Positions 8,328 to 62,643 of a DNA stretch of 64,000 bases are shown one piece after another; the stretch's first letter is position 1; every line of letters begins with the position of its first letter. A program made the position numbers and the translations under genes. The notes under the pieces were generated by a model, which made no database searches, was not told the DNA's origin, and saw only the letters and a program-made list of their open reading frames with translations. The DNA is from an uncultured Gemmatimonadota bacterium (GTDB lineage Bacteria; Gemmatimonadota; CAZMKB01; CAZNLH01): contig CAZNLH010000002.1 of assembly GCA_964573995.1 (NCBI GenBank), positions 25,060-89,059 of the forward strand, read 5' to 3'.

Positions 8328-9068
8328 TCATCGGTCCGGCCACTCTTCGAGGTGGATCTCTTCGCCCCTGACGCGGCCGTAAGTGAAATGCTCCGACCAA
8401 TCTCCGATGTTGAGGTAAGTCCCCCCATCCATCAGGCACTTCTCGGGCTGGTGGGAATGGCCGACTATGATCCAGTCGTAGGCGCCTGATTCAAGTTGCT
8501 TGCGGGCGAATGCCCTCAGGTTACGAGCAGTACGTTCCCGTTTCTCTTCTATACGTTGCCGGCTCTTTCTCGAAGTGAGTCTCGCCAGCCAGGCCCCCGC
8601 ATCCGGGTGGAGGAGGCTGAAGACGGTTGCGCTGATCGGGCTTCTCAGGATCCTCTTCATGTAGAGATATCCCTTCTCGTTCGCGGAAAGGCCGTCGCCG
8701 TGGGCGAGGAAGGCCCTTCGTTTGCCGAACAATTCACTGGAAGGTGAATCGTGTACTGTAGTTGCGAGGTGTTGTGAGAGGAATCCCGAGGTCCAGTAGT
8801 CGTGGTTGCCGAGGTAATAGTCGATCCTGATACCGTTGCGTCTGAGGTTCCAGAGTCCTGCGAGGATGGGGAAGTTGCATGACGCGATCACTCGGCGGTA
8901 CTCGAACCAGAAATCAAAGAGGTCACCGAGTATTACGAGTCGATGCCCGTGCGTGTTTACGTGGTCGAAGAAGTCCAGGAGTTTGCGCACCTTTGATTCC
9001 TCGACCGCTGGATCATCTGCGCCCAGGTGGGCGTCGGAGAGGAAGAAGATGTCCTCTTTCATACCCAT
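8328..9068 (-). CDS. lpxH: UDP-2,3-diacylglucosamine hydrolase-like calcineurin-type metallophosphoesterase
   Basis: The DxH...GDxxD...GNHD...GH metallophosphoesterase motifs (FFLSDAHLG, ILGDLFDFW, LGNHDYW, VGHSH) are arranged as in LpxH. The start was chosen at the MGMKED Met; the six-frame track extends to 9110. Confidence 0.65.
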   Translation of the reverse strand: MGMKEDIFFLSDAHLGADDPAVEESKVRKLLDFFDHVNTHGHRLVILGDLFDFWFEYRRVIASCNFPILAGLWNLRRNGIRIDYYLGNHDYWTSGFLSQHLATTVHDSPSSELFGKRRAFLAHGDGLSANEKGYLYMKRILRSPISATVFSLLHPDAGAWLARLTSRKSRQRIEEKRERTARNLRAFARKQLESGAYDWIIVGHSHQPEKCLMDGGTYLNIGDWSEHFTYGRVRGEEIHLEEWPDR

Positions 9069-9261
9069 AATATCAAGCAAGGTCTCGCCGGCGTTACTGC
9101 AAGCCGGCATAACGCTCCCACGGCCATCTTAAGATATAATCGGTCTGGAGAAAGGGCAACCTTGTCGGAGTATTGACTCCGCCCTGATTTTTTGATAGTT
9201 TTTGACCTCTTTCGTTAATTCGATCCATTGAATGGGGCATTGAAAGGTGGAGCGTGGAGAA

Positions 9262-10946: not shown

Positions 10947-11366
10947 ATGGAGGAAGACGACCGAGATTTCACAACCTCGACGGTGCGCGTCCGGTACGCG
11001 GAGACCGACCAGATGGGAGTGGTGTATCATACCAACTACTTGGTATGGTTTGAAGTGGGCAGAACCGAGTATATCCGGGAGAAGGGATTGAGTTATCGGT
11101 TCATGGAGGAAAAGGGGGTGTACCTGCCGGTGCTGGAGTCTCACTGCAGGATAGTGGCATCTGCGAGGTTCGAAGACTCCCTTGAAGTACGAACATGGAT
11201 CAGTGAGATGAAGACCCGGAAGATGGTATTCTCATACGAGGTCAGGAGGGAGGGCGAACTCCTGGCAAACGGGATGACGGTACATATCTGCCTGAACGGG
11301 AATCGACGCCCGATTCGGATACCCGAGTGGGTTCAGAGGAGCCTCCTCACGCGCCTGCCGGAGTAA
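10947..11366 (+). CDS. acyl-CoA thioesterase, YbgC/4HBT hotdog family
   Basis: YAETDQMGVVYHTNYLVWFEVGRTEY is the canonical 4HBT/YbgC N-terminal catalytic motif. The start is immediately after the upstream stop. Confidence 0.75.
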   Translation: MEEDDRDFTTSTVRVRYAETDQMGVVYHTNYLVWFEVGRTEYIREKGLSYRFMEEKGVYLPVLESHCRIVASARFEDSLEVRTWISEMKTRKMVFSYEVRREGELLANGMTVHICLNGNRRPIRIPEWVQRSLLTRLPE

Positions 11367-11390: not shown

Positions 11391-14303
11391 TTGGACGGAC
11401 GATTCGGTGCAGTCAGGTCCATTCCCTGTGAGCCCGGTGCAAACCGGGTTGTTGTCATGCAGCATTCCCAGCGTTTTCATTCCGCTACCTGTTGGTTGTC
11501 GCGGCTTCACGTCTGTCTGATCGTTGTTTTCTCCGTACTGGCGTCCTGCCGCTTCCTTTCCTCGCAGACCTTTTACTTTGGCAAGAACAAGATCCAGTAT
11601 GTCGATTTCGATTGGCACATACTGAAGGGTGAGCACGTCGATGTCTACTTTTATCCCGAGGAGCGGGAGATCGCCGAGGTCGCTCTCAAGGAGGCCGAAT
11701 CGAGTTACCGGTTCCTCGAGGAGAAGTTCAGGCATCACGTCTTTCGCAGGATCCCCCTGATACTGTATAGTTCACACCAGGATTTCGAACAGACCAACGT
11801 CATCCCCTATTTCGTCCCGGAAGGGGTGGGTGGAGTGACGGAGTTACTCAAGGGGAGGGTGGCCCTCCCCTTCAGCGGCTCTTATCACGATTTCAAGACG
11901 GTAATTCGTCACGAGATGGTGCACGTCTTTGAAACCGGCAAGATCAACAGTTACAGGATGATGAGGAAGGGATACCAGGCGGTTTATTCCCCACTATGGG
12001 TAACGGAGGGGCTGGCCGAGTACCTTTCAGGGGAGTGGAACACGCTCGGCGATCAGGTGATGCGGGACCTCGTCATGCATCACCGGCTGTCCGACATAGG
12101 GGACCTGTGGCACTTCAACGGGACTTTCGCGGTCTACAAGATAGGACAGTCGATCTTCCGTTTCCTCGGGGAGCGCTACGGCGACGATAAGATAAGCCTC
12201 CTGTACGAGGAGATGGGGAGGGGGAGCACCTTCCCGGCGGCGTTCAGGAGGACCTACGGAACTACCCTTGAAGATGTCGGGAGTGAATGGAATTGGTGGT
12301 TGAAGCAACGCTATTACCCCGAGGTGGCCAGGTTTACCGATTTGGGGGTGAGGGCGGAGAAATTGACCCGTGGAGGCTCGAGTTTTCACCCGGTGATCTT
12401 CAAGGACGGGGAAGGAATAAACCGGCTGGTCTATATATCGACACGATCCGGTTACGAGGATATCTGCGAGATATCTATGGATGATGAGAAGACGCCTGAG
12501 AAGACAATCCTGAGGGGGGGCAGGGGCGCCCTGCTCGAGTCCCTGCATCCCTTTCAGAGCGGGATAGACGTGAGCGAGGCAGGCATCCTCGTGTTTTCTT
12601 CGAAATACCACGACCGTGACGCCTTGGTATTTCTCGACCTGGATACCGGCAAGATCACGGGGAGGTACCAGTTTGAAGGAATAGTGGGAATTACATCGCC
12701 GGCCTGGTCTCCCGGGGGCGATCGGGTTGTGTTTTCAGGGCTCACCCCTGCTGGCTACCTCGACCTCTTTGTCTTCCATCTTGGGGATGGAAGGCTCGAA
12801 CAACTGACGAACGATCGATATGCCGATCGGGACCCGGATTTTTCGCCCGGGGGTGATCGCGTCGTTTTTTCATCGGACAGGACACCTTACGGGAAGGGTG
12901 GGGCATTGAACCTCTGCACGATCGATATTTCATCGAGGGAAATCCGTTACCTGATGCTCGGGCCGTGGCGCGACGAGTCGCCGGAATGGCGTTCTGGAAG
13001 GGACGGCGAGATCCTCTTTGTATCCGACCGGGACGGTATTCAGAATGCGTACTCGCTTGGAGAGGGGGGAAGAGTCGAACGATTGACTTCATTCTCAAGC
13101 GGGGTATACTCGCCCAGGTGGTTGCCCGATAAAAAGGGTCTCGTCTTCGCCGCCATGGATGACCAGAGTTTCGGGATCTATCGGATGGACCGGCTGGAGC
13201 GGCCGGATACCGTATCGGTTGTACCGGCGGTGGAGAAGGGTGTGCATTCGTGGGGATGGGAATTGCCGGTGAATGATTCGAGCAGGGTCGAGAGGGTTGA
13301 GAGGTACAGGCGCAAATTTTCGCTCGATATCGCCCAGGGTGGTGTGGGCTTCAGCAGTTCTTTCGGTAACGCACAGGGGGCGCAGTTTGTCCTGTCCGAC
13401 ATGCTGAGTGATCAGTTGGTGGCCTTGCAGGTCTTCAACACGGCCTCATCGAGCAAGGATTTTCTCGGATCCTTCAGCGGGTCCGCAACCTACATAAACC
13501 GCAAGGAGCGGCTCAATTACGGATGGGGGGCCTACCATTTCAAGGGTGACTTCTTCGATTTCAGACGTTCCGACACCCCCTTTTCGGAGCGGCAGTACGG
13601 CGCCTTTTTCCTCCTTGGCTACCCCTTCTCCAAGTTCCTGAGGGTGGAGGGCTCCATCCTTGTCTCCCGTTCCGATCGGAGTGATTATATATCCAACTTC
13701 AGTCGGAAGTCCTACCTTGTTACCAATGTATTCTCCCTCGTAAAGGACAATTCGCTGTGGCTCCCTACGGGGCCCATCGACGGCGAGCGGATCAACCTGA
13801 CGATCGGCATCACCAACGACATAAGCCGGGCAAGTACGGACAACATGACGCTCCAGGCGGATATCCGGAAGTATTTCAGGACGTCGCTGCGATCTGCCTA
13901 TGCGGTTAGGCTGTTCGGGAGGATCAGCGAGGGAACACTGCCGGAACGGGCATTCATCGGGGGTAGTTGGACCCTCAGGGGTTACCCCAGGTTTTCGATA
14001 CTTGGAACCCGGGTGGTCCTGATCAACCAGGAATTGCGGTTTCCCCTCTTGAACCGCCTGATACTGCGTTTCCCGTTCGGTGACCTCTCTTCTCCGCCCA
14101 TCCAGGGGGCCCTCTTTTTTGATGCCGGCAACGCGTGGGACAAGGATGCGGGGTATCCCGGCCTCCTTGGAAGTTTCGGGCTTGGAGCCAGGTTCAGCCT
14201 GGGCGGTCCCCTGGTCCTGCGGCTCGACTTAGCGAGGACGACGGATTTCCATTCGATCTCGCACGATACGAAGGTCGACTTTTTCTTCGGTTATGACTAT
14301 TGA
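11391..14303 (+). CDS. outer-membrane fusion protein: HExxH zinc-peptidase-like domain + PD40 (TolB-like) beta-propeller repeats + C-terminal Omp85/BamA-family barrel
   Basis: HEMVH at about residue 185. There are at least four PD40 repeats (SPAWSPGGDRVVFS, DPDFSPGGDRVVFSS, SPEWRSGRDGEILFVSDRDG, SPRWLPDKKGLVFAA). The C-terminal roughly 330 aa carry Omp85 barrel signatures (RAFIGGSWTLRGYP, NQELRFPL, GALFFDAGNAW, GLGARFSLGGPLVLRLDLA, terminal FFFGYDY). The true start is probably the Met at 11454 ahead of a signal peptide. Confidence 0.7.
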   Translation: MDGRFGAVRSIPCEPGANRVVVMQHSQRFHSATCWLSRLHVCLIVVFSVLASCRFLSSQTFYFGKNKIQYVDFDWHILKGEHVDVYFYPEEREIAEVALKEAESSYRFLEEKFRHHVFRRIPLILYSSHQDFEQTNVIPYFVPEGVGGVTELLKGRVALPFSGSYHDFKTVIRHEMVHVFETGKINSYRMMRKGYQAVYSPLWVTEGLAEYLSGEWNTLGDQVMRDLVMHHRLSDIGDLWHFNGTFAVYKIGQSIFRFLGERYGDDKISLLYEEMGRGSTFPAAFRRTYGTTLEDVGSEWNWWLKQRYYPEVARFTDLGVRAEKLTRGGSSFHPVIFKDGEGINRLVYISTRSGYEDICEISMDDEKTPEKTILRGGRGALLESLHPFQSGIDVSEAGILVFSSKYHDRDALVFLDLDTGKITGRYQFEGIVGITSPAWSPGGDRVVFSGLTPAGYLDLFVFHLGDGRLEQLTNDRYADRDPDFSPGGDRVVFSSDRTPYGKGGALNLCTIDISSREIRYLMLGPWRDESPEWRSGRDGEILFVSDRDGIQNAYSLGEGGRVERLTSFSSGVYSPRWLPDKKGLVFAAMDDQSFGIYRMDRLERPDTVSVVPAVEKGVHSWGWELPVNDSSRVERVERYRRKFSLDIAQGGVGFSSSFGNAQGAQFVLSDMLSDQLVALQVFNTASSSKDFLGSFSGSATYINRKERLNYGWGAYHFKGDFFDFRRSDTPFSERQYGAFFLLGYPFSKFLRVEGSILVSRSDRSDYISNFSRKSYLVTNVFSLVKDNSLWLPTGPIDGERINLTIGITNDISRASTDNMTLQADIRKYFRTSLRSAYAVRLFGRISEGTLPERAFIGGSWTLRGYPRFSILGTRVVLINQELRFPLLNRLILRFPFGDLSSPPIQGALFFDAGNAWDKDAGYPGLLGSFGLGARFSLGGPLVLRLDLARTTDFHSISHDTKVDFFFGYDY

Positions 14304-14322: not shown

Positions 14323-15597
14323 TCAAGGCAGGACACTGATCGCGGAGGGATATACGAAGCCTCCCACGCTTCCCAGTATGTCTCCATCCTTCGACACCTT
14401 TATCACCCTGCCTTCCATCGAGGTTGCGGCCGCCAGCCAGCACGAGCCCTCCACGGGGTCGACTGCCAGGTCGCTGATGAATTCGAAACCTGGTACGTCC
14501 AGGTCGGTAGTGAATGAGGGCCCTACGCGCGTGATGGTCCAGGTCTCGGCGTAATGGGCGATCCAGCAGGAGCCGTCGCCGGTATTTACGGCCACCTTCA
14601 CGGGCGGTGGCTGGATGTCTCCCAGTGCGAAAAGAGTCCCTCCATCCTTGCTCAATATGGTTACCCCGTTGTCATCGGCGATCCAGCACCGACCGTAGAC
14701 AGGGTCCGCGGATAGCGACACGGGGTTGCTGAAACCGCCTATTGCCGTGAAGTCCTCCTCGCCCGGGCCCTTCCTGTAGACTGTCCCCTCCCCGCGGGAT
14801 GCCACCCACACCGTCCCGTCGCCCTGATCGATGTCTATATCGATCGGGTCCGAAATGTAGGGAAAAAAGGCCAGTTCGTTCCCCGAATCGTCGACCTGGG
14901 AAACACCACCGGGAGACCTGTAGCCGATCCAGAGCGTATGGTCGGAGGCGCGCACGCCGAGGGTGACCGGGAGTCCCCTGCCGGCGCCCGAGTTGCTGTG
15001 CTCGAGCAGAAAGTCTCCGTCGATCCCGTATTTTATGACGCGCCTGCCGAAGTAATCCGCCACCCAGATGGATTGTCCGTCCGGTGAGATCTCCACGTCC
15101 ATGGGGCCCGAGAGACCCGTTACGCGTGTCAAGCGGTCGCGGGCGTCTGGGGTGATCCTCCACAGGGCGGGGGAGTCGAGGTCGACCGTCCAGGCCGTCG
15201 TTGGGCCCGGCGTAGCGACGTCAGAGGCCGAATAATAGCGCTCTGAGTGTGGCGCCAGGAACCGGAGGATATAGGTGTACGTGTGGGAGTTAAGGACATC
15301 GGCATCCGTCCAGGTAGTATCTTCAGGTGGAATCCGGGACTGGTTCAGGGTCGTCGTTTCCGGCGAGTCGCCCTCGAGTCTCAACAAGTCGTATCCCACC
15401 AGGTCGTGAAGGTCGAGGTCGTTCCATGCCAGCCTTACCTCCTCGTCTCCGGCGAGCGCATTTAGGTTGTCAGGCGTTCCACCGGTGGAGGGGTTCATCG
15501 GGTCGAGTGGATTGATGTGGTCTCTCCCCTTGCACCCCTCAGTGAGGAGCAGGGTGCAACAGGAGAGCAGAATGGTAACTGTGGCCCTGTATATCAT
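14323..15597 (-). CDS. lipoprotein with a fibronectin-III-like domain and NHL/beta-propeller repeats
   Basis: Start at MIYRATVTILLSCCTLLLTEGC (signal plus Cys), with an ATGA overlap onto the upstream gene stop. Repeated propeller-like blocks (WVADYFG, WIADDNG, CWIAHY, CWLAAAT). The six-frame ORF extends to 15756, but the internal Met fits the operon coupling. Confidence 0.55.
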   Translation of the reverse strand: MIYRATVTILLSCCTLLLTEGCKGRDHINPLDPMNPSTGGTPDNLNALAGDEEVRLAWNDLDLHDLVGYDLLRLEGDSPETTTLNQSRIPPEDTTWTDADVLNSHTYTYILRFLAPHSERYYSASDVATPGPTTAWTVDLDSPALWRITPDARDRLTRVTGLSGPMDVEISPDGQSIWVADYFGRRVIKYGIDGDFLLEHSNSGAGRGLPVTLGVRASDHTLWIGYRSPGGVSQVDDSGNELAFFPYISDPIDIDIDQGDGTVWVASRGEGTVYRKGPGEEDFTAIGGFSNPVSLSADPVYGRCWIADDNGVTILSKDGGTLFALGDIQPPPVKVAVNTGDGSCWIAHYAETWTITRVGPSFTTDLDVPGFEFISDLAVDPVEGSCWLAAATSMEGRVIKVSKDGDILGSVGGFVYPSAISVLP

Positions 15598-16499
15598 CGT
15601 CTGACAGTATCTCCAAAGTACCACGTGATGATCAGGGGGCTTTCTCCCGATCGTCCAAGTTTCAGGGCGGGGGGTGGCCTCTTCCCCTGATCGCCCCGCA
15701 AGTTCCTGAAAAAGAGGAAAATCGTGGCGCCCAGGGCCACCTGGCCGCTTACCCAAAGTATTCGGGCCCGGTTGTCCATCCGCTCCGCGCCGTTGAACAG
15801 GCGGTTCATATCATCCCTGGATGAGGTGTGCCGGTAATCGTCGAACAGGTCGTCGGCGCGCTCCTTGGTGTAAAATCCGAGTGCAGTGGCGCCGATAAAG
15901 TATGACAATGTGGCGTATGGTAACCAGCCGGGGGACACGCCGGGCCTCTGGTCTTTCCCTGTAGCGGCAACCTCCGGTGTGAGGTTCGAGCCGGCGGGTT
16001 CGAGAGACAGGTTGAGCAGGGGCACCTGGAGTCGGGGATCGTCAAGGCGGAAGGTCAACCTGCGGTATCCGATCTTGGCTACGCTCAAGGTGGAATCTAT
16101 GCCGCGGATGATGCTCAGTGCCAGCGGAGATCGCCCGGCCGGATGGCCGTTCAGGAATATTTCACTTGCTTCGGGCACAGTTGTAACCTGCAGGGGCCTG
16201 ACGTCTCCCTGCCGGATGACCAGGGATTCATCCTCCGCCAGCACGAAGGGACACGATTGCACGGGAGGCAACCATCGACCATCCCGGTCGGGCGGAAGCA
16301 GGGTCATGTAATGAAGGCCTGCTTGCACGGTGAGTGTGGCCGAGTCATTCACCCCCTTCGTTTCATTGTCGATAATGAGCACCGCTCCGGGATAATCCAG
16401 GCGGATCACGGCCGTTTTCTCGGCGAAAGCGGGGGAGATTCGAAAGGCCGGCCAAAGGGGAATCGTCGTGGCCAGTAGCGTGATCGTTGTCTTGCTCAC
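15594..16499 (-). CDS. PEGA-domain secreted or membrane protein
   Basis: Signal peptide; two PEGA-like segments (AVIRLDYPGAVLIIDNETKG and TTVPEASEIFLNGHPAGRSPL); a C-terminal transmembrane segment. It overlaps both neighbouring genes by 4 bp. Confidence 0.5.
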   Translation of the reverse strand: MSKTTITLLATTIPLWPAFRISPAFAEKTAVIRLDYPGAVLIIDNETKGVNDSATLTVQAGLHYMTLLPPDRDGRWLPPVQSCPFVLAEDESLVIRQGDVRPLQVTTVPEASEIFLNGHPAGRSPLALSIIRGIDSTLSVAKIGYRRLTFRLDDPRLQVPLLNLSLEPAGSNLTPEVAATGKDQRPGVSPGWLPYATLSYFIGATALGFYTKERADDLFDDYRHTSSRDDMNRLFNGAERMDNRARILWVSGQVALGATIFLFFRNLRGDQGKRPPPALKLGRSGESPLIITWYFGDTVRR

Positions 16500-17719
16500 C
16501 GTGCTCCACCCGTTCTGTCCAGGTCGTCTTCGGCTGCAAAGGCGATCAATTCACCCCTTCCGGTTGTAATGAATAGCCGCCTTCCCGATATGGCCGGAGC
16601 GGCGTACAATGGCGCGGCAACGGTCTCCTTCCACAACAATTCGCCGCTCCCGACGTCCACCATCACGATTTCACCGGCCAGCGATAAGATGATCACCGCC
16701 TTGCCGGAGGTTACTGGTGCCGCCTCGAGGAGACCGGAAGTCGTCCGCCTCCAAAGTAATTTGCCTGAGTGAGGGCCCCATGCGAATGCCGCACGGATGC
16801 CGTCCGTTCCGAGGATGGTATCTCCTGAAATGGACAATTTATAGGTCCTTGGTGCATTGGATACCTCCATGCGCCCTTCCGGGTGCCGTAGCGTGATGAG
16901 GCCGATCCCCCCCGCCCATCCATAAAACAGGCAACCGTCCATGGCAGCGGTGGAGGGAAAGGAATTCGGCGATATGGCCCTGTGATTGATAATTTTTCCG
17001 TCGATCGTTGATAGCACGTCCATCGTATCTTTCGAGGCGACTATGAACAGGGAGTCCCCAATGATGATGGGAGACTGCGGCACCATCGCCCTGAGTTGTC
17101 TCTTCCACAGGAGTTCCCCCCTGGTGATTGTATGGGCGAAGAGGGTGCCTTCATCAGACAGTGTGTATATGATTCCGGCATCTATAGTCGGAGTCGATCG
17201 GCTCGGGCCGATCTTCCTGTTCCAGATCTCTTCTCCCCTCCTGATATCTATCGCGTAGAGTGAGCCGTCGGGATATTCAGTGGTGACAAAGATTCTACCG
17301 CTTGAAACGACGGGGTCTCCGTAACATCCCCCCCCGATCTTGGTCTGCCATAGTTTTTTTCCATCCCTGGCAAGGTAGGCCTTCACCATTCCATCGGTAG
17401 TGGCGGCAATAACTATGGCGCCGACGGGGACGGGTGATCCCTTGAATCCACGCCCAGCCTTTGTCCTCCATGCCTCTATCAGGGGAGGCGAAAGTTCCGC
17501 ATGGATCGATCCACTCCTTTCGAAATCACCCCCCGCCGTCCGCCATTCTCCAATGTAGCCGGTCTCGTCTATCAGGCGGGCTCCACAGCCTGTGAATACG
17601 ATCAAGAGTGAGACAAGGATGAAGAGAAGGTTGCTCGGGGGGACGGATTGCAATTTCAATCCCTCTTGTTTCGGCCGCTTATACCCTATCGTTAAAGGTC
17701 GTGAATGATCCGATTCCAC
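16496..17719 (-). CDS. PQQ-like beta-propeller repeat lipoprotein (BamB-like)
   Basis: Lipobox LLIVFTGC. Repeated beta-propeller blades with the BamB/PQQ pattern (IFVTTEYPDGSLYAIDIRRGEEIW, IYTLSDEGTLFAHTITRGELLW, ILSLAGEIVMVDVGSGELLW). Confidence 0.55.
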   Translation of the reverse strand: MESDHSRPLTIGYKRPKQEGLKLQSVPPSNLLFILVSLLIVFTGCGARLIDETGYIGEWRTAGGDFERSGSIHAELSPPLIEAWRTKAGRGFKGSPVPVGAIVIAATTDGMVKAYLARDGKKLWQTKIGGGCYGDPVVSSGRIFVTTEYPDGSLYAIDIRRGEEIWNRKIGPSRSTPTIDAGIIYTLSDEGTLFAHTITRGELLWKRQLRAMVPQSPIIIGDSLFIVASKDTMDVLSTIDGKIINHRAISPNSFPSTAAMDGCLFYGWAGGIGLITLRHPEGRMEVSNAPRTYKLSISGDTILGTDGIRAAFAWGPHSGKLLWRRTTSGLLEAAPVTSGKAVIILSLAGEIVMVDVGSGELLWKETVAAPLYAAPAISGRRLFITTGRGELIAFAAEDDLDRTGGAR

Positions 17720-20528: not shown

Positions 20529-21545
20529 CTATTCGCTGTTGGGCGGGTTTCCAATGGTCACGCGCTGGTTTCCTATGTGACCGACGCCCCAGATCATGAA
20601 GTCCCCACCGTAATCCGATCCCGCATTCCCCCAGACATCGTCGATCCGCGTGAACATCTGGTCCGGGTGGTTGACCTCCGCATCGACCCCCTGTCCCTCG
20701 CAGGTCGGGTAGTCCGTCAACTGGTCGTTGGCGATGTAGAAGGCCGAACTGATCGGTATGCCGGGATAGGCCACGGCGTGGCTCGTCCCGGGGGTCACCT
20801 GCGATACATCGCTGAAGAGGAGTGTACCGGGCAGGCCCCCTGACCCATCGTTGTCGAAGACTTGAAGCAGGATATCCTGGTGGATATCGTCGGGCCAGGG
20901 CCAGCCGGGGTCGCCCTCGGAGAGGATATAAACCCCGATCGAGTCGAGGACGGAACCATCGGGCAGGCAACCACGAATTGCCCAGGCGTTGCAGAGGTGT
21001 GACCAAGCCCAGGCGTTTGCCATTACGCCGTCATCCCAGCGGACCTCGATCTCGTCCCTGCTGTTCAGATCGAACTGGAAGAAATCGGCGAGTTGGCCGT
21101 CGATGAACAACTTGGCCGTGTAGCGGCCATAGACTTCCAGATTCCACGGCACGAGATCGCTGTATTTGCGGTAAGTCTCCTCGCCGCCCTGAAGCACGAT
21201 TTCATTTTGGAAGAGCGACCGCCGCGATCCGTCAGGGAAGTCAAGGCGAATTTGGACATCACCGCTGTCCTCGGCTTCGTCCTCGTTCCAGAGTTTGATG
21301 TTGAAGGTGAGTTGTTCACCGGGGACCACCTCAAAGGGAACCGTCCGTTCGATCGAGCCGCGGATGCTTTGATGGTCCATTGTAAAATTCCCGAGGTCGC
21401 CGGCCGAGTGGCCGCCGGTGAGAGGGACCGCTGACAGGGCAGGGTTGTCTATTTCATTGGCCATAAAAGAGATGGCGGCGGTGGGAGTCAGGATCCATGG
21501 TATTAAGGAGAGAGGAAAAAGGGTGAGCAAGAACCTGGTCGACAT
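20529..21545 (-). CDS. secreted protein of unknown family, paralog A
   Basis: Signal peptide from MSTRFLLTLFPLSLIPWIL. It shares long conserved blocks with 21823-22794 (YGRYTAKLFIDG, FDLNSR-EIEVRWDDGV, WAIRGCLPDG, WPWPD, PTCEGQGVD). The six-frame ORF runs to 21596. Confidence 0.55.
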   Translation of the reverse strand: MSTRFLLTLFPLSLIPWILTPTAAISFMANEIDNPALSAVPLTGGHSAGDLGNFTMDHQSIRGSIERTVPFEVVPGEQLTFNIKLWNEDEAEDSGDVQIRLDFPDGSRRSLFQNEIVLQGGEETYRKYSDLVPWNLEVYGRYTAKLFIDGQLADFFQFDLNSRDEIEVRWDDGVMANAWAWSHLCNAWAIRGCLPDGSVLDSIGVYILSEGDPGWPWPDDIHQDILLQVFDNDGSGGLPGTLLFSDVSQVTPGTSHAVAYPGIPISSAFYIANDQLTDYPTCEGQGVDAEVNHPDQMFTRIDDVWGNAGSDYGGDFMIWGVGHIGNQRVTIGNPPNSE

Positions 21546-21704
21546 GGCGTTCTCCTTTTTACAGGCTTGCACCTGAAGGGGTGTGAAGGACAGCAAAGAA
21601 ATTATAGATGAAATATCATGTTATTTAAATAATACAACTATCTGTAACTTCACGCAAGGGAAAATTATTGCCGTACAGCAAAGCCCGGATTTTACGGTAT
21701 GAGC

Positions 21705-21822: not shown

Positions 21823-22794
21823 TTACTGCTGAGCAGGCGGATTTCCGACTGTGACGTTCTGCCCTGCAACGGAAGCAATGGCCCAGATCATCAGGTCTCC
21901 TGAGATCGATGAATAAGGTTGCCATGCGCCGCTGATCTCGGCCCACATCTGGTCGTAGTGGTTCAAGGCACCATCGACGCCCTGTCCCTCGCATGTCGGA
22001 TATGGATCCAACTGGTTGTTGGCCACGAAGAAGGCAGATGTGGTGATCGGTACGCTCACGGTCGCAATCGCATCTCCACTTGCACCGCCGTTGGCGATGT
22101 TATCGGAGAGCAGTGTACCAGGGTATCCACCACCGCCCGTGTTGTCATAGAGTTGGACACCGATGTCCTGGTGGACGGCGTCCGGCCACGGCCAGTAAGG
22201 ATCGTTCTCAGAAAGGACATGAACGCCTATCTCGTTGACTACGGCCCCGTCTGGCAGGCAGCCACGGATCGCCCACTTGTTGCCGGCGTCGTACCAGGCG
22301 TAAGCATTTACCAGTACTCCATCGTCCCAACGGACCTCGATATCCGTCCGGCTGTTCAGGTCGAACTGGCAAAAACTGGCCAGGACCCCATCGATGAAGA
22401 GTTTCAGGGTGTAACGTCCATAGAGTTGGAGATTGTCGGGGACATATTCAGAGTAAGGGTACGTGATACTCTGCAGGCCCTCGAGCGTTACGTTCTCTTC
22501 CATCATGGGAACCTGTGCACCGTTAGGGCAGTCGAGGCGCAAGAGGACGTCGGCACTGTTCTGCTCCTGATCGGTGTTCGTCAGGGTGATGTCCGCGGTG
22601 AAATTCTCACCCGGGATGATCTCGAACTCGATCGTACGTTCAATGTGTCCCTTGATCGGACCCTGAATTGTGACTTCACCATAGTTGACCTGATTTCCTA
22701 TGGGCAGGTTTGCAGCTGAGGCTGTTGTGGCGTAAAGCTGGACGTTCACCAGGAAAAACGCCGCGGCAGCAACAGCAAAGACCTTCCTTGTCAT
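21823..22794 (-). CDS. secreted protein of unknown family, paralog B
   Basis: Sec signal peptide (AVAAAAFFLVNVQLYATTASA). It is collinear with 20529-21545 over its whole length; by eye roughly 45-50% identity. Confidence 0.55.
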   Translation of the reverse strand: MTRKVFAVAAAAFFLVNVQLYATTASAANLPIGNQVNYGEVTIQGPIKGHIERTIEFEIIPGENFTADITLTNTDQEQNSADVLLRLDCPNGAQVPMMEENVTLEGLQSITYPYSEYVPDNLQLYGRYTLKLFIDGVLASFCQFDLNSRTDIEVRWDDGVLVNAYAWYDAGNKWAIRGCLPDGAVVNEIGVHVLSENDPYWPWPDAVHQDIGVQLYDNTGGGGYPGTLLSDNIANGGASGDAIATVSVPITTSAFFVANNQLDPYPTCEGQGVDGALNHYDQMWAEISGAWQPYSSISGDLMIWAIASVAGQNVTVGNPPAQQ

Positions 22795-36700: not shown

Positions 36701-37744
36701 ATGCTGGGAATCCTGAAAAAAATAAGGGGGCTCAGTCCGACGAGTGAAATAGCGATTGATCTGGGGACCGCTAACACACTCGCCTACGTCAAGGGGCGCG
36801 GGATAGTTCTCAATGAGCCATCCGTCGTGGCCATCGATAAGAAGACAAGGGCGGTCAAGGCGGTTGGTAACGAAGCCAAGAAGATGCTGGGCAGGACGCC
36901 GCAAGAGACGGCAGTAATCCGGCCCCTGAAGGACGGAGTGATCGCCGACTTTGAAGTAACGGAAAAGATGCTTGAATGCTTCATCAGGATGGTATTGAAG
37001 AACCACTTCCTTCCCCTTAGACCGAGGCTCATTATATGTGTTCCGTCCGGGATCACGGAAGTCGAGAAGAGGGCGGTGCGCGACTCTGCGGAGTCCGCGG
37101 GGGCGAAAGAAGTCTATCTTGTCGCGGAACCGATGGCAGCGGCCATCGGAGTAGGCCTTCCAGTGGAGACTCCTTCCGGGAACATGGTGATTGATATAGG
37201 TGGAGGAACGACTGAGATCGCCGTCATCGCCCTGTCGGGTATCGTGTGCAATACCTCGATACGGGAGGGGGGGGATGAGATGGATGAGGCGATGGTGCAG
37301 TTCATGAAGAAGAGTTATAACATGTTGATCGGGGAGCAGACTGCTGAGAATATAAAGATCAACATCGGTTCCGCTTACCCCATGAACGAGGAACTCGAGA
37401 TCGAAGTCAAGGGGAGGGATATCATTACCGGGATTCCAAAGACCGTGACCGTACATTCAAGTGAAATCCGGGAGTCTCTCCAAGAGCCGATTATGGCGAT
37501 TGTGGATGCCGTCAGGCTGGCACTTGAGAAGACGCCGCCTGAATTGGCCTCGGATATAGTCGATCGTGGCGTTGTCATGACTGGAGGGGGCTCGTTGTTG
37601 AGGGGGCTCGATGTACTCCTCCATGAAGAGACAAAACTTCCGATCAATCTCGATGAGGATCCCCTCACTTGTGTGGTGAGGGGGACGGGAAAGGTCCTTG
37701 AGGACCCCGGGAAATACGGAATCGTCGTGATTCCCGGGCAGTAG
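36701..37744 (+). CDS. mreB: rod shape-determining protein MreB
   Basis: Actin-like ATPase motifs ([20 protein letters not shown]). Confidence 0.9.
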
Positions 37745-37761
37745 CCTTCCACTCAATTCCG

Positions 37762-38685
37762 GTGTTAAATTTTCTGAGATACATCTGGTTGCATCGTGAG
37801 AGGGGATTGATTTTCACGCTATCCTTCATATCAATCGTTTCACTTTACCTCCCGCAGGATACCGGATATATCTTTTATCGCCGGGTCAACCGGCTCGTGA
37901 TAACGCCGTTCCAGGTCGTTTTGGACCAGGTCGAACGTTATAAAGAAGCCGCCAGGCGTTCATCCGAACTCGAAGAGGAAAATATACGACTCTCTCTTGC
38001 TCTTCATGCCATGCAAACAATTGAGGCCGAGAATATTCGCCTGCGCAAGTTGCTGGACTTCTCCACCTCGAAGGGCGTGAGGTTTGTTGCGGCGCGGGTC
38101 ATCGGGTACAATCCTTCTGGACCGCTGAGTAGCATCGCCATCGATAAGGGAAGGCAGGATGGTGTCAGGCCTCTCCTTCCTGTAATGACCCCTGACGGGC
38201 TCGTCGGCAAGGTCGCGGAAGTCGATGAAAATAACAGTTTGGTGGAACTCTTCACATCGAGCGGATTCAGCGTGAGCGGGATGGTCGTCGAGAACGGGGA
38301 GGTGGGTATCGTAACGACTCATGGGTCGGGAAGGCTCTATCTTGAAGGCCTCAACTTGAGGACCCAGGTAAAGGCTGGGGACCGGGTTGTATCCTCCGGG
38401 CTCGGCGGTGTATTCCCTGTGGGGATCCCGGTGGGAATCGTCCGATCTGTCGAAATGGACCCGCTTGGGGTTCAGCGCGTTGCCTCCATCGTGCCGGAAT
38501 TGGATCTCAATTCCGTAAGGGAGGTCTTTATATTGCCGGATTCGAACTACATCAAGGCTGATCCGCTATGGTTGATCACCTCGAAGGGCTCACTCTCTTC
38601 GCTATGGCCTGAATTTTCCAGTGGTTCTCCCCATGATCACGTCGCTGACGGGCGGCCGGGTAGTGATGGCCGGGATCGCGAATGA
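37762..38685 (+). CDS. mreC: rod shape-determining protein MreC
   Basis: N-terminal transmembrane segment plus coiled coil, then MreC beta-domain blocks (VIGYNPSGPLSSIAIDKG, DGLVGKV, VVSSGLGGVFPVGIPVG). Confidence 0.8.
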   Translation: MLNFLRYIWLHRERGLIFTLSFISIVSLYLPQDTGYIFYRRVNRLVITPFQVVLDQVERYKEAARRSSELEEENIRLSLALHAMQTIEAENIRLRKLLDFSTSKGVRFVAARVIGYNPSGPLSSIAIDKGRQDGVRPLLPVMTPDGLVGKVAEVDENNSLVELFTSSGFSVSGMVVENGEVGIVTTHGSGRLYLEGLNLRTQVKAGDRVVSSGLGGVFPVGIPVGIVRSVEMDPLGVQRVASIVPELDLNSVREVFILPDSNYIKADPLWLITSKGSLSSLWPEFSSGSPHDHVADGRPGSDGRDRE

Positions 38686-39173
38686 TCCGCAAGATCGCAC
38701 CCATCCTCCTGGTGTGTTTTCTCCTGTTCCTGCAGGTATTCTTTCATTCTTTGTATGGATGGGTGGATGAACTCCCCGACCTGGTACCGATTGCGTTGGC
38801 TATAGCCGCCCTGAGATGGGGAATGGGTTGGACAGGATTTATCGGGTTTCTCGCGGGGGTAATGGAAGATTCCTTTTCCACATCTTACCTTGGCCTTGGT
38901 TCACTTTCATGGATCATAGCCGGAATGGTCGGGGGTTCAGTTAGGGGATCATTGTACGGTAATCAGTTGAGCGTCGCGGTTATCCTGGTAGCCATCATCA
39001 AGATGATCCACGATATCATTTACAATGTTGTTTATTTATGGGATTCCCCCAGCGATATCCCGTCTCGTCTCTTTATTCATGTGCCTTTTGCCGCACTATA
39101 TTCAGTTGCCCTTTCCATCGTATTGTTCTTCTTCATTGGGCGTTTTGTACTGGATACCCGTAAGAGTTCTTGA
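38682..39173 (+). CDS. mreD: rod shape-determining protein MreD
   Basis: Small polytopic membrane protein. Its start overlaps the mreC stop, in the conserved mreBCD order. Confidence 0.65.
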   Translation: MIRKIAPILLVCFLLFLQVFFHSLYGWVDELPDLVPIALAIAALRWGMGWTGFIGFLAGVMEDSFSTSYLGLGSLSWIIAGMVGGSVRGSLYGNQLSVAVILVAIIKMIHDIIYNVVYLWDSPSDIPSRLFIHVPFAALYSVALSIVLFFFIGRFVLDTRKSS

Positions 39174-41008
39174 TTATGCTACGATCGTGGCGAGGCTTGA
39201 AGCGGTCCGACTGGGGAAGGATAAGAGATGTAAGGGACGTGAGGTCACGCCTTGCAAAGGTGCTTATCGTGGCGATCGTCTCGTTCCTTGCGCTTATCGC
39301 ACTTCACCTTCAGGTGTTTCAGACGTCAAAGTACAGGCTCCATTCTGACAGGAATCGACTTCGCAAGATTGAGATTCCTCCGCCCAGGGGGCTTATCACG
39401 GATCGACAGGGGGAGATACTTGCCGAAAACATCCCGAGTTCCGCTCTCTACCTTGTCCCTTATTACGTCGAGTCGGCGGATCAGACCTTGGCCAGGCTTG
39501 ATGATCTCCTGGCCTTGAATGATCGTCAAATGAAAGAAATCAAGTATCGTATTGATCAAGGGGGATTCACCCCGGTATTAGTGGCCGACAATGTGGGTAT
39601 CGCCGACAGGTCCTTCCTGGAAGAGCACCGGGACTTGATTCCCGGCTTGTTGATCCGTTCAGAGCCTCTGCGGTATTACAGGCATGGACGAGAACTTTCT
39701 CATGTAATCGGTTATGTGGGGGAGTCCTCTTCTTTGGGGGAAGAAGAGGAGTCGGGGCGTAAGGCCAGCAATACAGGTTTCGTTGGCAAGGCAGGCATAG
39801 AACTCTATTACGACAAGTTGCTGCGTGGCAGGCCGGGTGCGTACTTTGTCGAGGTTGACGCCAGAGGGAGAGAGGTCAGGGCGTTTCAGGGAAGGGAACC
39901 TGTCAGGCCGCAGAGAGGAGCCGATATCCGCCTTACGATTGACCTGGACCTTCAACTCGAGGCATATCGCCTCTTCCCGGAGGGCAGGAAAGGGGCCCTG
40001 CTCTGCATGGATCCCCGGAACGGCGAGATACTGGCCATGGTCAGTCGTCCGGATTATGATCCGAACGCCATGGTGACCGGGGTCAGTTTCATGGAATGGA
40101 AGGTGATGGTCAATGATCCCGGTTCCCCATTTTTCAACAGGGTTACCCAGGCGGGTTATCCCCCTGGATCGGCTTTCAAGCCTGTCGTGGCGCTCATGGG
40201 GCTGCAAAAGGGAATTATTGATCTCCACTTCAAGGAACCCATCCCCTGCCGCGGCGGCATTCAATTCGGCACGAGATGGTTTAGGTGCTGGAAGGAGGGT
40301 GGACACGGGCGGCTCGATCTCTATCAGGCCATCGTTCAGTCGTGCGACTCGTATTTTTATCAACTCGGGAACCGGATTGGACTGGAGGAACTCCTTGCGA
40401 ACTCGAGGCGATACGGTTTCAACGAACTGACCGGGGTTGATCTTCCGGACGAGTCTAAGGGTTTTATTCCTGACAGAGAGTGGTATGACAGGCAGTATGG
40501 AAAGAGGGGGTGGGGAAGGGGCGTGGCCCTGAACCTTTCCATCGGCCAGGGAGAACTCCTCGTAACTCCCTTACAGTTGGCCGTATTCTACTCCATGATC
40601 GCGAACGGGGGCAGTTTCGTACGCCCTCACCTGTTGAAGAGTGGAGGTGAAGTTGCGGGTCCGTCTGCGTTGAGGCTACCATTCAGCGTGGTGCAACCTC
40701 TTCAGGTGGCACTGGCCGGAGTCGTCTCGGAAGAGAAGGGTACGGGGCGGTATGCGGGCGAGATAGCGGGTGTGAAAATGGCGGGGAAGACCGGGACTGC
40801 CCAGAACCCTCATGGGGAAGACCACTCTATTTTCGTCGGATATGGGCCGGTCGATAATCCCCGGATCCTGATGGTAGCAGTTATTGAAGAGGCAGGCCAT
40901 GGAAGTTCGGTGGCAGCGCCCCTTGTTGGTCGACTCTTGAAGAAATACCTCGGAGGATCTCGCCCTGATCAGGGGCCCGGTCGAGTGGTAGCGGCAGAGG
41001 AGGGCTGA
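39170..41008 (+). CDS. mrdA: penicillin-binding protein 2 (peptidoglycan D,D-transpeptidase MrdA)
   Basis: N-terminal transmembrane anchor, dimerisation domain, and transpeptidase motifs SAFK, SCD and KTGT. Confidence 0.85.
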   Translation: MIMLRSWRGLKRSDWGRIRDVRDVRSRLAKVLIVAIVSFLALIALHLQVFQTSKYRLHSDRNRLRKIEIPPPRGLITDRQGEILAENIPSSALYLVPYYVESADQTLARLDDLLALNDRQMKEIKYRIDQGGFTPVLVADNVGIADRSFLEEHRDLIPGLLIRSEPLRYYRHGRELSHVIGYVGESSSLGEEEESGRKASNTGFVGKAGIELYYDKLLRGRPGAYFVEVDARGREVRAFQGREPVRPQRGADIRLTIDLDLQLEAYRLFPEGRKGALLCMDPRNGEILAMVSRPDYDPNAMVTGVSFMEWKVMVNDPGSPFFNRVTQAGYPPGSAFKPVVALMGLQKGIIDLHFKEPIPCRGGIQFGTRWFRCWKEGGHGRLDLYQAIVQSCDSYFYQLGNRIGLEELLANSRRYGFNELTGVDLPDESKGFIPDREWYDRQYGKRGWGRGVALNLSIGQGELLVTPLQLAVFYSMIANGGSFVRPHLLKSGGEVAGPSALRLPFSVVQPLQVALAGVVSEEKGTGRYAGEIAGVKMAGKTGTAQNPHGEDHSIFVGYGPVDNPRILMVAVIEEAGHGSSVAAPLVGRLLKKYLGGSRPDQGPGRVVAAEEG

Positions 41009-42243
41009 TGTTCGGACGAGTGTTGAGGGATAGCGATCCCTATCTCTTACTGTCTGTTATGGTCCTTACTGCCTCGGGCCTCCTGCTCATCTTTTCGGCG
41101 GGTGAGGGGAGTCAATCCACCGCAACGGCCGATCTCTATGCAAGGCAGGCGATCTGGTGGACAGTCGCCGCGGCCACAGGTGCCGTTGCCTTTTCAATAC
41201 CATTAAAATGGTGGGAGGTAATGGCATACCCGCTTTACTTCATCGGCCTCTGTCTTCTAACCATATTGGCATTGAATCGAGATGGAGGCAGCACAGCGGC
41301 GAGGTGGATCAGGGTAGGGTCCATTCAGGTGCAGCCGGCGGAATTCGCCAAGGTCTTTACCATCATGGCCATGGCCCGATATCTCGGCAACCGGAAGGGG
41401 CCAGTGGAATCATTCAGGGGATTGGTAATTCCTTCGCTCATTGCACTTATCCCCGCGGCCCTCACGGCACTTCAACCGGATCTGGGGACCGCCATGGTAT
41501 TCATAGCCATACTACTCGGTGCACTGTTCTGGTCTGGAATACCGGCAACCCATCTCTTTTTCCTGATTGTCCCGGTCTTGAGCCTCCTTACGGCCTTTAA
41601 TTCCATGATATGGGGGATCTTCACCGCATCCCTTGTGTTTTTCCTCGCTTGGCGCAGGACCTATCTCTTTGATTCCATCCTAATCATGAGTGTCAATATC
41701 GCAACGGGCCTGATGACCGTTCCCCTGTGGGAGCGCCTGAAGCCCTATCAGAGAGAACGGATAGTAGGTTTCTTGAGGCCGCAGACTGATCCACTGGGAT
41801 CGGGATGGCAGATAATCCAATCCAAGGTGGCCATAGGTTCCGGTGGGCTGATGGGAAAGGGTTTCTTGAAAGGGACCCAGAAAAAACTGGCCTTTCTGCC
41901 CGCACAGCACACGGATTTTATCTTCTCCATCCTCGGAGAAGAATTCGGTTACATAGGAGTGCTCTTCCTCCTCGGCCTCTTCCTCTGGATCCTATTACGC
42001 ATCGTTGAACTGGCACGAAGCGTATATTCCAATTCCTTTTCAACCCTGCTGGCGTTCGGTGTCTTCGTTATCTGGTTCTTCCACTTTTTTATCAATGTTG
42101 GAATGGCACTCGGAGTGATGCCGGTCACCGGTCTTCCGTTGCCTTTCGTAAGTTATGGCGGCTCTTTCCTGGTCGCATGTTACTTCTCGCTCGGCATTCT
42201 GTTGAGAATTTCCTCTGAGCGTTTCAATTACTGGGCGAGGTAA
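41008..42243 (+). CDS. rodA: peptidoglycan glycosyltransferase RodA (SEDS family)
   Basis: FtsW/RodA/SpoVE family polytopic membrane protein. Its start overlaps the mrdA stop. Confidence 0.85.
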   Translation: MFGRVLRDSDPYLLLSVMVLTASGLLLIFSAGEGSQSTATADLYARQAIWWTVAAATGAVAFSIPLKWWEVMAYPLYFIGLCLLTILALNRDGGSTAARWIRVGSIQVQPAEFAKVFTIMAMARYLGNRKGPVESFRGLVIPSLIALIPAALTALQPDLGTAMVFIAILLGALFWSGIPATHLFFLIVPVLSLLTAFNSMIWGIFTASLVFFLAWRRTYLFDSILIMSVNIATGLMTVPLWERLKPYQRERIVGFLRPQTDPLGSGWQIIQSKVAIGSGGLMGKGFLKGTQKKLAFLPAQHTDFIFSILGEEFGYIGVLFLLGLFLWILLRIVELARSVYSNSFSTLLAFGVFVIWFFHFFINVGMALGVMPVTGLPLPFVSYGGSFLVACYFSLGILLRISSERFNYWAR

Positions 42244-51336: not shown

Positions 51337-52038
51337 TTGCTGATGGTTTATAGTTATCTCTCTATGGGTATTGCAGGTAACAGCGTGGCTCGCATGGTCC
51401 TTGATTCCGGTGTGTTCGTCAAGGCCATACTACTTGTACTGCTCCTTTTCTCCATCATGGCCTGGGCGGTGATTTTTCACAAGTACCGGTTATTCAAGAG
51501 AGTCGAAAGCGCAAACGCGCGTTTCCTTCGAATGTTCAGGGCGGGGTCCCTGAAGGATGTGTTCGATAGTTGTTCCTCCATGAGTTCTTCTCCACTGTCG
51601 GAGATCTTGAAGGATGGATACCGGGAACTTGAGATGTTCGGGGACGATGGGATTGAAGGAGGCGATCCTGAACTCTTACGTCAGAGCATATCGGCGGCCC
51701 TCGATATAAGATCGACAGAGGAGATTTCCCGTCTGCGTCATCATCTGGTCTTCCTTGCGGTGACGTCCAGTGTTTGCCCGTTTTTCGGTCTCCTGGGGAC
51801 TGTGTGGGGAGTAATGGACTCCTTCCTCTCGATGGGTGCCTATGGAACGGCCAATATCCAGGTCGTGGCGCCCGGAGTTGCAGAGGCATTGATCACCACC
51901 GTGGCGGGACTGGCCGCTGCGATCCCGGCAGTTATAGCATACAACTACTTTGCCAGTCGCCTGAGGCGAATCATCGAGGTGGTCGACGGCTTCTCCATGG
52001 AATTTACGAACGTGGCCGTCCGCGAGGTGTTGGGGTGA
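51337..52038 (+). CDS. tolQ: MotA/TolQ/ExbB proton-channel family protein
   Basis: Three transmembrane segments and the conserved C-terminal TolQ/ExbB region (GLLGTVWGVM ... VAPGVAEALITTVAGL). Confidence 0.8.
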   Translation: MLMVYSYLSMGIAGNSVARMVLDSGVFVKAILLVLLLFSIMAWAVIFHKYRLFKRVESANARFLRMFRAGSLKDVFDSCSSMSSSPLSEILKDGYRELEMFGDDGIEGGDPELLRQSISAALDIRSTEEISRLRHHLVFLAVTSSVCPFFGLLGTVWGVMDSFLSMGAYGTANIQVVAPGVAEALITTVAGLAAAIPAVIAYNYFASRLRRIIEVVDGFSMEFTNVAVREVLG

Positions 52039-52454
52039 AGAAGAGTACTCATGGATTGGAACAACTGCCTGATATAAATGTAACAAACCTGGTCGATGTC
52101 ACTGTCGTCCTCTTGATTATCTTCATGATTACCGCCCCGTTGATGCAGAGCAGCCTGGATGTGGATGTACCGCGGACCCAGGCGGAGCGGAGGGAAATAT
52201 TCGAGGGCTTGATGGTAGTGATAACCTCCAAGGGGGAAATTTATCTGGGGAATCAGCCTGTTTCGCTCAGTGCTTTTCAGTCCCGCCTTGAAAAAATGAT
52301 GCAGGAGGACCCGTCGCGGCCCGTTTACCTCAAGGCGGACCGCAAGGTCTCATACGGCAAAGTGGTCAGGGTAATAGGGGGGATCAAGGAGGCAGGAGTG
52401 ACGAATCTCGGCCTAGTTGTTAAACCCGAGGAGGAGAACCGGGAGGGGGGGTGA
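52035..52454 (+). CDS. tolR: biopolymer transport protein ExbD/TolR
   Basis: GTG start overlapping the tolQ stop (GTGA). Single transmembrane segment (INVTNLVDVTVVLLIIFMITAPL) and an ExbD periplasmic domain. Confidence 0.75.
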   Translation: MKKSTHGLEQLPDINVTNLVDVTVVLLIIFMITAPLMQSSLDVDVPRTQAERREIFEGLMVVITSKGEIYLGNQPVSLSAFQSRLEKMMQEDPSRPVYLKADRKVSYGKVVRVIGGIKEAGVTNLGLVVKPEEENREGG

Positions 52455-58999: not shown

Positions 59000-59158
59000 G
59001 GAAGATCGTGCAATATGTCTCATTCGGAACATTGCCGGGATCAAGAGTGTATCCCTTCGCACCTGACTCACTTGCGGTTTTCGACCGACTGTATATAATA
59101 TCATGACACGTGATGACGATGATCGACATGGCGGACATGAAAATATGAAAGGATTCCT

Positions 59159-62626: not shown

Positions 62627-62643
62627 AAGAAGGAGAAGTATTC

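Follow-up and report, generated by a model that had tools for sequence, protein, structure and literature searches.

Here we describe a gene at positions 11391-14303 of the forward (+) strand within a 64,000-nucleotide stretch of contig CAZNLH010000002.1, from an uncultured Gemmatimonadota bacterium; this whole stretch is referred to below as the window. The gene product consists of a Sec signal peptide, a gluzincin domain, a six-bladed TolB-like PD40 propeller and an Omp85 barrel, without a POTRA domain, and we are highly confident that it is a member of the WD40-Omp85 subfamily. We modestly favor the combined reading that this subfamily member acts as a periplasmic envelope metallopeptidase. 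What is new here is the invariance of the peptidase active site, the coexistence of the protein with a canonical TolB, and the repeated pairing of its gene with BamB-like and LpxH-like genes. The WD40-Omp85 proteins form a large group (about 1,000 clusters at 50% identity) found in many phyla and functionally uncharacterized; if they are envelope proteases anchored in the outer membrane, the functions of Omp85 proteins would reach beyond insertion and translocation.

Domain architecture of the protein

The gene is a single uninterrupted reading frame encoding 970 amino acids (aa) from a TTG start, identical to a gene that the Joint Genome Institute (JGI) called on a metagenome contig 145 kb long (sample 3300023444), and it is present exactly as a first-pass annotation of the window, made from the letters alone, had described it. 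Because the N-termini of 49 relatives start 20-45 aa ahead of a conserved FGKNK motif in the alignment, we favor the ATG at 11457 over the TTG, and the protein is likely to be 948 aa long. Residue numbers refer to this 948-aa form unless marked as residues of the open reading frame (ORF). The features of the gene, all on the + strand, are as follows.

11391-14303 (+): whole ORF, JGI-called, 970 aa from TTG; probable start ATG 11457 (948 aa)
11457-11567 (+): Sec signal peptide, MQHSQRFHSATCWLSRLHVCLIVVFSVLASCRFLSSQ; cleavage site inferred
11577-11600 (+): mature N-terminal segment FGKNKIQY, nearly invariant (F41, G42, N44, K45, Y48), low-confidence in the model
11604-12356 (+): gluzincin (clan MA(E), Peptidase_MA_2) zinc-peptidase domain, residues ~50-300
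11817-11843 (+): PEGVGGVTE segment, about 25 residues ahead of HExxH; E122, G123, G126, T128 and E129 invariant
11910-11924 (+): HEMVH zinc-binding and catalytic motif (H152, E153, H156), invariant in relatives
11997-12023 (+): WVTEGLAEY block, with E184 as predicted third zinc ligand; W181, E184, G185 and A187 invariant
12135-12137 (+): Tyr227 in a YK(L/I)G motif, invariant in relatives
12357-13226 (+): six-bladed PD40 TolB-like beta-propeller, residues ~301-590, from model and Foldseek
13227-13295 (+): linker without a POTRA domain, low-confidence, poorly conserved and helix-free
13296-14300 (+): Omp85-type beta-barrel, residues ~614-948, from model, Foldseek and the Omp85 and ShlB Pfam families
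13974-13985 (+): loop-6 LRGY (residues 840-843), counterpart of BamA VRGF, from conservation in relatives

The motifs quoted in the first-pass annotation are all in the translation: HEMVH, GGSWTLRGYP (13959-13988), ELRFPL, GALFFDAGNAW, GLGARFSLGGPLVLRLDLA and the C-terminal DFFFGYDY. Its central claim, an HExxH peptidase and a PD40 propeller on an Omp85 barrel without POTRA, is confirmed by Pfam, AlphaFold2 and Foldseek. Separate Pfam searches find all three parts: Peptidase_MA_2 at ORF residues 122-305 (33.7 bits against a cut-off of 32.4), PD40 (37.6 against 20.9) and Omp85 (PF01103; 23.7 against a gathering cut-off of 24), with ShlB matched exactly at its cut-off (22.7 bits against 22.7). 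NCBIfam gives partial matches to TolB (98 bits) and to Omp85_fam. An AlphaFold2 model from an alignment of 50 relatives (mean predicted local distance difference test score, pLDDT, 81; predicted template modeling score, pTM, 0.79) is laid out as a sheet-plus-helix domain at residues 50-300, propeller blades at 309-586, a linker at 587-613 and a barrel at about 614-946. In a Foldseek search against PDB the best match is TolB (E 5e-11), followed by the BamA/TamA/Toc75 barrels (E ~1e-7); every solved chain covers a quarter of the model or less, and the search returned no structure of the whole architecture.

The signal peptides of the relatives terminate in A-x-A ahead of a Q, a signal peptidase I type site. 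A lipobox reading of 'LASC' in the signal peptide of this copy was rejected, the Cys not being present in relatives.

The peptidase domain and its invariant active site

The N-terminal domain carries the marks of clan MA(E), namely HExxH, a downstream Glu as third ligand and, in the predicted structure, a thermolysin-like fold. In 50 relatives at 41-70% identity, H152, E153, H156, W181, E184, G185, A187 and Y227 do not vary; among 53 genomic relatives at 32-51% identity the H, E, H, E, G and Y are still invariant, and HExxH together with the downstream EG block is found in all 132 full-length cluster representatives, which are 30-49% identical. Conservation is highest in the peptidase domain (0.62, compared with 0.58 for the barrel and 0.57 for the propeller). 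Peptidase_MA_2 is matched by 52 of the 53 N-terminal domains, and a profile built from all 53 matches M9 collagenases and M1 glutamyl aminopeptidase by sequence, the WFTEGLAEY of the family aligning with WWSEGVAEY of the M9 collagenases.

Because the catalytic residues are invariant down to about 30% identity, we consider that the peptidase is probably an active zinc enzyme; the invariant active site, as read from sequence comparison, argues for a true enzyme rather than a scaffold. The outcomes that the first-pass annotation had named as fatal to its reading, a C-terminal region that is not a 16-strand barrel or an HExxH region with a non-catalytic fold, were not borne out, the model being consistent with a 16-strand barrel and having a peptidase fold with conserved catalytic residues. 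The gluzincins M30 (lugdulysin/hyicolysin), M9 and M1 (aminopeptidase N) have the same fold and the same order of HExxH, (W)xxEGxAEY and Tyr as this domain. However, sequence identity to them is only 11-16%, and, unlike this protein, they are not fused to a propeller or a barrel. Endopeptidase versus exopeptidase specificity is not transferable from them. By position, the PEGVGGVTE segment would correspond to the substrate-binding edge strand of M1 peptidases or to their GxMEN-type motif, and Tyr227 is a candidate for the transition-state-stabilizing Tyr of M1 and M9 peptidases.

FGKNKIQY (11577-11600, residues 41-48) and SSHQDFEQTNV..P..PEGVGG.TE (11757-11846, residues 101-130) rank among the best conserved stretches of the protein, and both structure predictions give them a pLDDT below 50. 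Each is a candidate for a mobile active-site flap, an edge strand or a partner-binding element.

The propeller and its relation to TolB

The AlphaFold2 propeller has 24 strands arranged as six blades of four; 'four or more' PD40 repeats had been noted before, and the propeller stands, with six as the actual count of blades in the model. TolB is both the top Foldseek match and the top PDB match for this region, and the fused propeller shares 31% identity with that of the TolB encoded in the same window. Both proteins have a six-bladed PD40 propeller, and TolB is the best match in sequence as well as in fold. Nevertheless, TolB carries the TolB_N domain (PF04052), which is matched by the window's own TolB (53083-54498) and not by this protein, and with the TolB equivalog model (TIGR02800) this protein scores far under the cut-off (98 bits against 343) and over the propeller only. 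Since the window has a canonical TolB and an LptD of its own, the WD40-Omp85 protein supplements the standard machinery rather than replacing it.

The window TolB belongs to a canonical Tol-type cluster at 51337-55313 (+), with a TolQ/ExbB-like gene (51337-52038), a TonB_C/TolA-like gene (52451-53110), TolB itself, which carries TolB_N plus four PD40 stretches, and, at 54495-55313, a TPR/YfiO-like protein that is possibly CpoB-like. A Pal/OmpA-like gene was not identified among the window ORFs scanned.

Propellers of this kind are also found with peptidases. DPPIV_N is matched in 44 of the 50 relatives, and tricorn and S9 structures are among the Foldseek matches. The propeller-gated peptidases (prolyl oligopeptidase/S9, DPP-IV, and tricorn with its M1 factor F3) combine a PD40/DPPIV_N-type propeller with a peptidase as this protein does. 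In contrast, S9, DPP-IV and tricorn are soluble with serine catalytic domains (S9, S41), whereas here a gluzincin lies N-terminal to the propeller and the protein is predicted to be membrane-anchored.

The linker and the barrel

POTRA (PF07244) has no match in this copy or in the 50 relatives scanned. A cryptic POTRA domain between propeller and barrel was considered and rejected, the segment being helix-free and poorly conserved. Setting the DSSP string of the model, rather than its coordinates, against the order of motifs in BamA gives a barrel of 16 strands, 11 before loop 6 and five after it, and by the same DSSP reading a short hairpin at residues 868-879 is placed in a periplasmic turn. 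Against BamA, TamA and Toc75 the barrel has a Foldseek probability of 1.00, with TM-scores of 0.54-0.58 against barrel-only BamA chains, and PF01103 is matched in 30 of the 50 relatives at E<=1e-3 (best E-value 8e-11). Around the loop-6 motif, G835, G836, R841 and G842 are invariant in the 50 relatives and Y843 is at least 90% conserved; a strict (V/I/L)RG(F/Y) motif is present in 80 of 132 distant representatives. The C-terminal aromatic residue, an Omp85 hallmark, is kept. NCBI names several relatives 'BamA/TamA family outer membrane protein', and with the BamA equivalog (TIGR03303) this protein scores 14.2 bits against a cut-off of 297, which does not place it with BamA/TamA.

Membership in the WD40-Omp85 subfamily

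The Omp85/TpsB superfamily has been split into ten subfamilies, one of which, 'WD40-Omp85', is defined by a TolB-like propeller taking the place of the POTRA domains (Heinz and Lithgow, 2014, PMC4104836). Table S2 of that study gives the PF07676 plus PF01103 architectures of the subfamily, with counts adding up to 62 sequences, and Table S3 gives for each WD40-like member, at Phyre2 confidence of at least 99%, a barrel match to 4k3b or 4c00, a 'best WD40 hit' to TolB (2w8b or 2ivz) and a 'best aminopeptidase hit' to 1z5h, 4kxd, 3qnf or 4ar1. The structures or families recovered independently here are those of that table. The subfamily members listed there include UniProt H1XQ58, D0MEQ5 and B0VIY2. 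The protein has the PD40/WD40 propeller before an Omp85 barrel without POTRA that defines the subfamily, as well as the aminopeptidase-like (M1/M9-type) N-terminal domain of Table S3, and we find no architectural difference between it and the subfamily. The main text of the 2014 study treats only the propeller, as a 'BamA-BamB fusion', without analysis of catalytic-site conservation or gene neighborhood, and a paper from 2024 speaks of WD40 and peptidase domains that are divergent (PMC11358297). The first-pass view that Omp85 barrels have only POTRA, patatin or two-partner secretion (TPS) partners had therefore been out of date since 2014, and the architecture it took for distinct and new is one already catalogued (PMC4104836; PMC11358297). 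As for its reservation that the protein could turn out to be a known annotated family with POTRA-like repeats, the family is indeed known and the repeats are absent.

A word-indexed search finds more than 2,284 relatives, the best 120 of which are nearly all full length at 41-70% identity, and an exhaustive representative search finds 1,040 clusters at 50% identity (E<=1e-30). At least 576 loci are confirmed in species-representative genomes, spanning Gemmatimonadota, Eisenbacteria, Zixibacteria, Glassbacteria, Ignavibacteria, Calditrichia, Marinimicrobia, Krumholzibacteriota, Fermentibacteria, WOR-3 and Bacteroidota; those in Calditrichia, Ignavibacteria and Bacteroidota include full-length relatives. 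A survey of the FCB group, as once suggested for this gene, would have been too narrow, since Gemmatimonadota, Eisenbacteria, Zixibacteria and Glassbacteria have the family too. Judged by the UniProt accessions tabulated in 2014, which stand there without organism names, it presumably extends to Deltaproteobacteria as well. This copy is at most 47% identical to the matches listed in species-representative genomes, the best of them (47%) being in a Glassbacteria metagenome-assembled genome (MAG).

Longer variants of 1,000-1,190 aa have the same architecture. One cluster representative of 1,321 aa (P0190) has Peptidase_MA_2, PD40, a truncated barrel match and a C-terminal BamB-like PQQ_2 propeller; it is either a true fusion of two neighboring genes or a frameshift or gene-call artefact. 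If true, the fusion would back a functional link between the WD40-Omp85 protein and the BamB-like gene.

Gene neighborhood

The neighborhood comparison covers 80 related loci plus the window. The neighbors in the window that bear on it are listed first.

10947-11366 (+): YbgC/FadM-family thioesterase, directly upstream; recurs upstream in Gemmatimonadota loci
8328-9110 (-): LpxH-like metallophosphatase, divergent; 88 bits to the LpxH model, under its cut-off
14323-15756 (-): NHL-like propeller protein, convergent, without a Pfam match; JGI form 424 aa from 15597
16496-17719 (-): BamB-like PQQ_2 propeller lipoprotein, lipobox VFTGC, 2.2 kb downstream of the WD40-Omp85 gene

Two links cross phylum boundaries, those to BamB-like and to LpxH-like genes. 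Upstream LpxH-like genes are seen in 28 loci, which belong to at least five phylum-level groups; in 16 loci, from Eisenbacteria, Zixibacteria, Ignavibacteria and unclassified MAGs, the next gene downstream on the same strand is BamB-like. Upstream of the gene in the window, on its strand, are asparaginase II, a CMD/AhpD-like gene and the YbgC/FadM (4HBT) thioesterase, the last of which is probably co-transcribed with the WD40-Omp85 gene. Downstream are convergent genes for the NHL-like protein, a PEGA protein and the BamB-like PQQ_2 lipoprotein, the first stop codon being 19 bp off. This upstream run and the convergent downstream gene had been noted correctly before; of the 'three-gene lipoprotein operon' also proposed, two genes have a lipobox-like Cys and the PEGA protein has an ordinary signal peptide.

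Proposed function and its alternatives

We propose the following scenario. The barrel would anchor the protein in the outer membrane with the N-terminal domains hanging in the periplasm, so that an active zinc peptidase would be anchored at the membrane's inner face. The propeller might bind unfolded polypeptides or a partner protein, or filter their access, as PD40 propellers do in S9 peptidases and tricorn. The peptidase then might process envelope proteins, or degrade them for quality control, during outer-membrane biogenesis in a manner comparable to BepA, possibly in cooperation with the BamB-like lipoprotein encoded nearby. This last step, envelope-protein processing or quality control at the inner face of the outer membrane, we put forward tentatively, as a proposal about as likely to be wrong as right and perhaps slightly more so.

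The topology is the first element to consider. To our knowledge, the N-terminal domains are periplasmic in every characterized Omp85 protein. Signal peptides of the signal peptidase I type, and N-terminal domains that in the model join strand beta-1 directly, point to the same placement here. We read the N-terminal domains as periplasmic because they are so in the characterized Omp85 proteins. This holds for PlpD too: its enzyme domain was for many years taken to be secreted but is experimentally periplasmic (PMC11116518). PlpD and the patatin-like Omp85 proteins resemble this protein in carrying an enzyme domain N-terminal to an Omp85 barrel, and the enzyme domain of PlpD acts on envelope components (PMC11116518); they differ in that PlpD has POTRA and a lipase fold, whereas this protein has a zinc-peptidase fold and a propeller without POTRA. 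For the activity, our favored functional model is BepA, a BAM-associated M48 peptidase (PMC8423444, PMC7950410), which similarly joins an HExxH peptidase to a protein-interaction domain and, from the inner face of the outer membrane, acts on barrels that are assembling or have stalled, LptD among them. A BepA-like way of working is what we propose here, not membership in the BepA family.

Several points weigh against this scenario. The Pfam match of this copy to Omp85 falls just under its gathering cut-off, we found no experimental study of any WD40-Omp85 member in the literature, and what we say of its topology, zinc binding, activity and substrates is inference throughout. The neighborhood links are of moderate weight: the BamB-like gene in the window is on the opposite strand and two genes away, PQQ_2 lipoproteins are common in these phyla, and most links are clade-specific, those to LptE, HEAT-PPIase, YbgC and RfaE genes being seen in Gemmatimonadota only. 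Accordingly, the LptE/HEAT-cyclophilin/RfaE/YbgC context was down-weighted as functional evidence, since it is limited to Gemmatimonadota and, together with the lipoprotein gene of that phylum's loci, amounts to one evolutionary observation.

One might instead take the protein for a non-proteolytic assembly factor, a BamA-like insertase in which the propeller replaces BamB or the POTRA domains and the HExxH domain is a chaperone or binding module; the scaffold part of this is the 'BamA-BamB fusion' idea of 2014 (PMC4104836). The barrel does keep the loop-6 RGY and the C-terminal aromatic residue, a BamB-like gene is adjacent in several phyla, and BepA itself is reported to have a protease-independent, chaperone-like role. 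Yet the zinc and catalytic residues are strictly invariant over a family of about 1,000 clusters. BamB is an eight-bladed PQQ-like propeller, whereas the propeller here is six-bladed and TolB-like, and a separate BamB-like gene is encoded alongside. We therefore regard a non-proteolytic role as unlikely.

A more ambitious version of the envelope-peptidase scenario would make the protein a self-contained quality-control machine, in which the lateral gate of the barrel captures or extracts mis-assembled barrels or lipoproteins that are fed through the propeller to the peptidase. If true, BAM-like and BepA-like functions would be joined in one polypeptide with a dedicated BamB-like lipoprotein, operating in phyla whose outer-membrane biogenesis is largely unstudied; we think this quite unlikely.

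The resemblance of the propeller to TolB raises the thought of a Tol-Pal-like tether or remodeler, with the propeller binding a Pal/OmpA-type protein and the peptidase trimming envelope tethers or peptidoglycan-linked proteins. Besides the 31% identity to the window TolB propeller, there is the thioesterase directly upstream, of the tol-pal-associated YbgC type, which is nearby in 23 Gemmatimonadota loci as well. This YbgC link, however, is limited to one phylum plus the window, a full Tol cluster is present elsewhere in the window, and the protein lacks TolB_N and scores 98 bits against the 343 of the TolB model. PD40 propellers, moreover, are standard partners of peptidases (S9, tricorn), and similarity to TolB does not imply binding of Pal, all of which makes such a role improbable.

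The first-pass annotation had entertained a surface-exposed 'passenger', that is, a protease exported through its own barrel in the style of type V or two-partner secretion to act on extracellular targets. Translocation was once raised by analogy with PlpD for other enzyme-Omp85 fusions (PMC4104836), and secreted enzymes, M30 lugdulysin and M9 collagenases, are among the structures nearest to the peptidase domain. The PlpD precedent has since been overturned, its enzyme domain being periplasmic (PMC11116518). The protein has neither POTRA nor TpsB-type features, about 550 folded residues of peptidase plus propeller run straight into strand beta-1, which in every solved Omp85 barrel has a periplasmic N-terminus, and the gene context is one of envelope biogenesis, not of secretion or nutrient acquisition. 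A surface location is consequently unsupported, and we hold it to be very improbable.

Finally, that the gene is an assembly or gene-call artefact joining separate genes, as the metagenome-contig source and the odd extra PQQ_2 domain of P0190 might suggest, is hardly credible when the reading frame is continuous and the same uninterrupted architecture of about 910-1,000 aa recurs in hundreds of independent assemblies including complete chromosomes.

Other observations on the loci and the window

Operon-like order is seen in Gemmatimonadota loci (e.g. L009, L037, L049), where a HEAT-repeat cyclophilin peptidyl-prolyl isomerase (PPIase) gene, the WD40-Omp85 gene, a lipoprotein gene and LptE follow one another, with RfaE-like and RdgB/RNase PH genes further downstream; the lipoprotein is about 235 aa long without a Pfam or NCBIfam match, and its start overlaps the Omp85 stop. 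The best synteny with the window is in a Gemmatimonadota MAG (L022; JBFGIA010000029, 2169-9680), which repeats the window's entire local gene order of asparaginase II, CMD, 4HBT thioesterase, WD40-Omp85, BamB-like gene (minus strand) and asparaginyl-tRNA synthetase (AsnRS), with an Omp85 protein only 40% identical to the window copy.

The start of the convergent NHL-like gene (14323-15756) is ambiguous. The longest ORF (477 aa) overlaps the PEGA gene, and in the 424-aa JGI form (start 15597) the signal peptide contains LTEGC, which is lipobox-like; the protein shows faint ScyE/NHL-like NCBIfam similarity only. An NHL-like gene is a recurrent neighbor of the WD40-Omp85 gene in Eisenbacteria, Marinimicrobia and Bacteroidota.

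A scan for promoters and terminators gave results at chance level and was uninformative, and no Pfam family matches the ORFs at 20529-21596 (-), 355 aa, and 21823-22794 (-), 323 aa, at E<=0.01. Further along the window, the gene for an LptD_2-family protein (56681-58999, +) precedes one for a protein of 1,155 aa (59159-62626, +) that combines an M6 (immune inhibitor A) peptidase domain with FG-GAP repeats; a PorV/UPF0164-like outer-membrane protein (62644-63573, +) comes next. This region (56681-63573) hints at type IX secretion and at a second large metallopeptidase, either of the envelope or secreted. The window is rich overall in cell-envelope genes, among them a rod-shape/elongasome cluster at 36701-42243 (+) comprising MreB, MreC, perhaps MreD, PBP2 and RodA.

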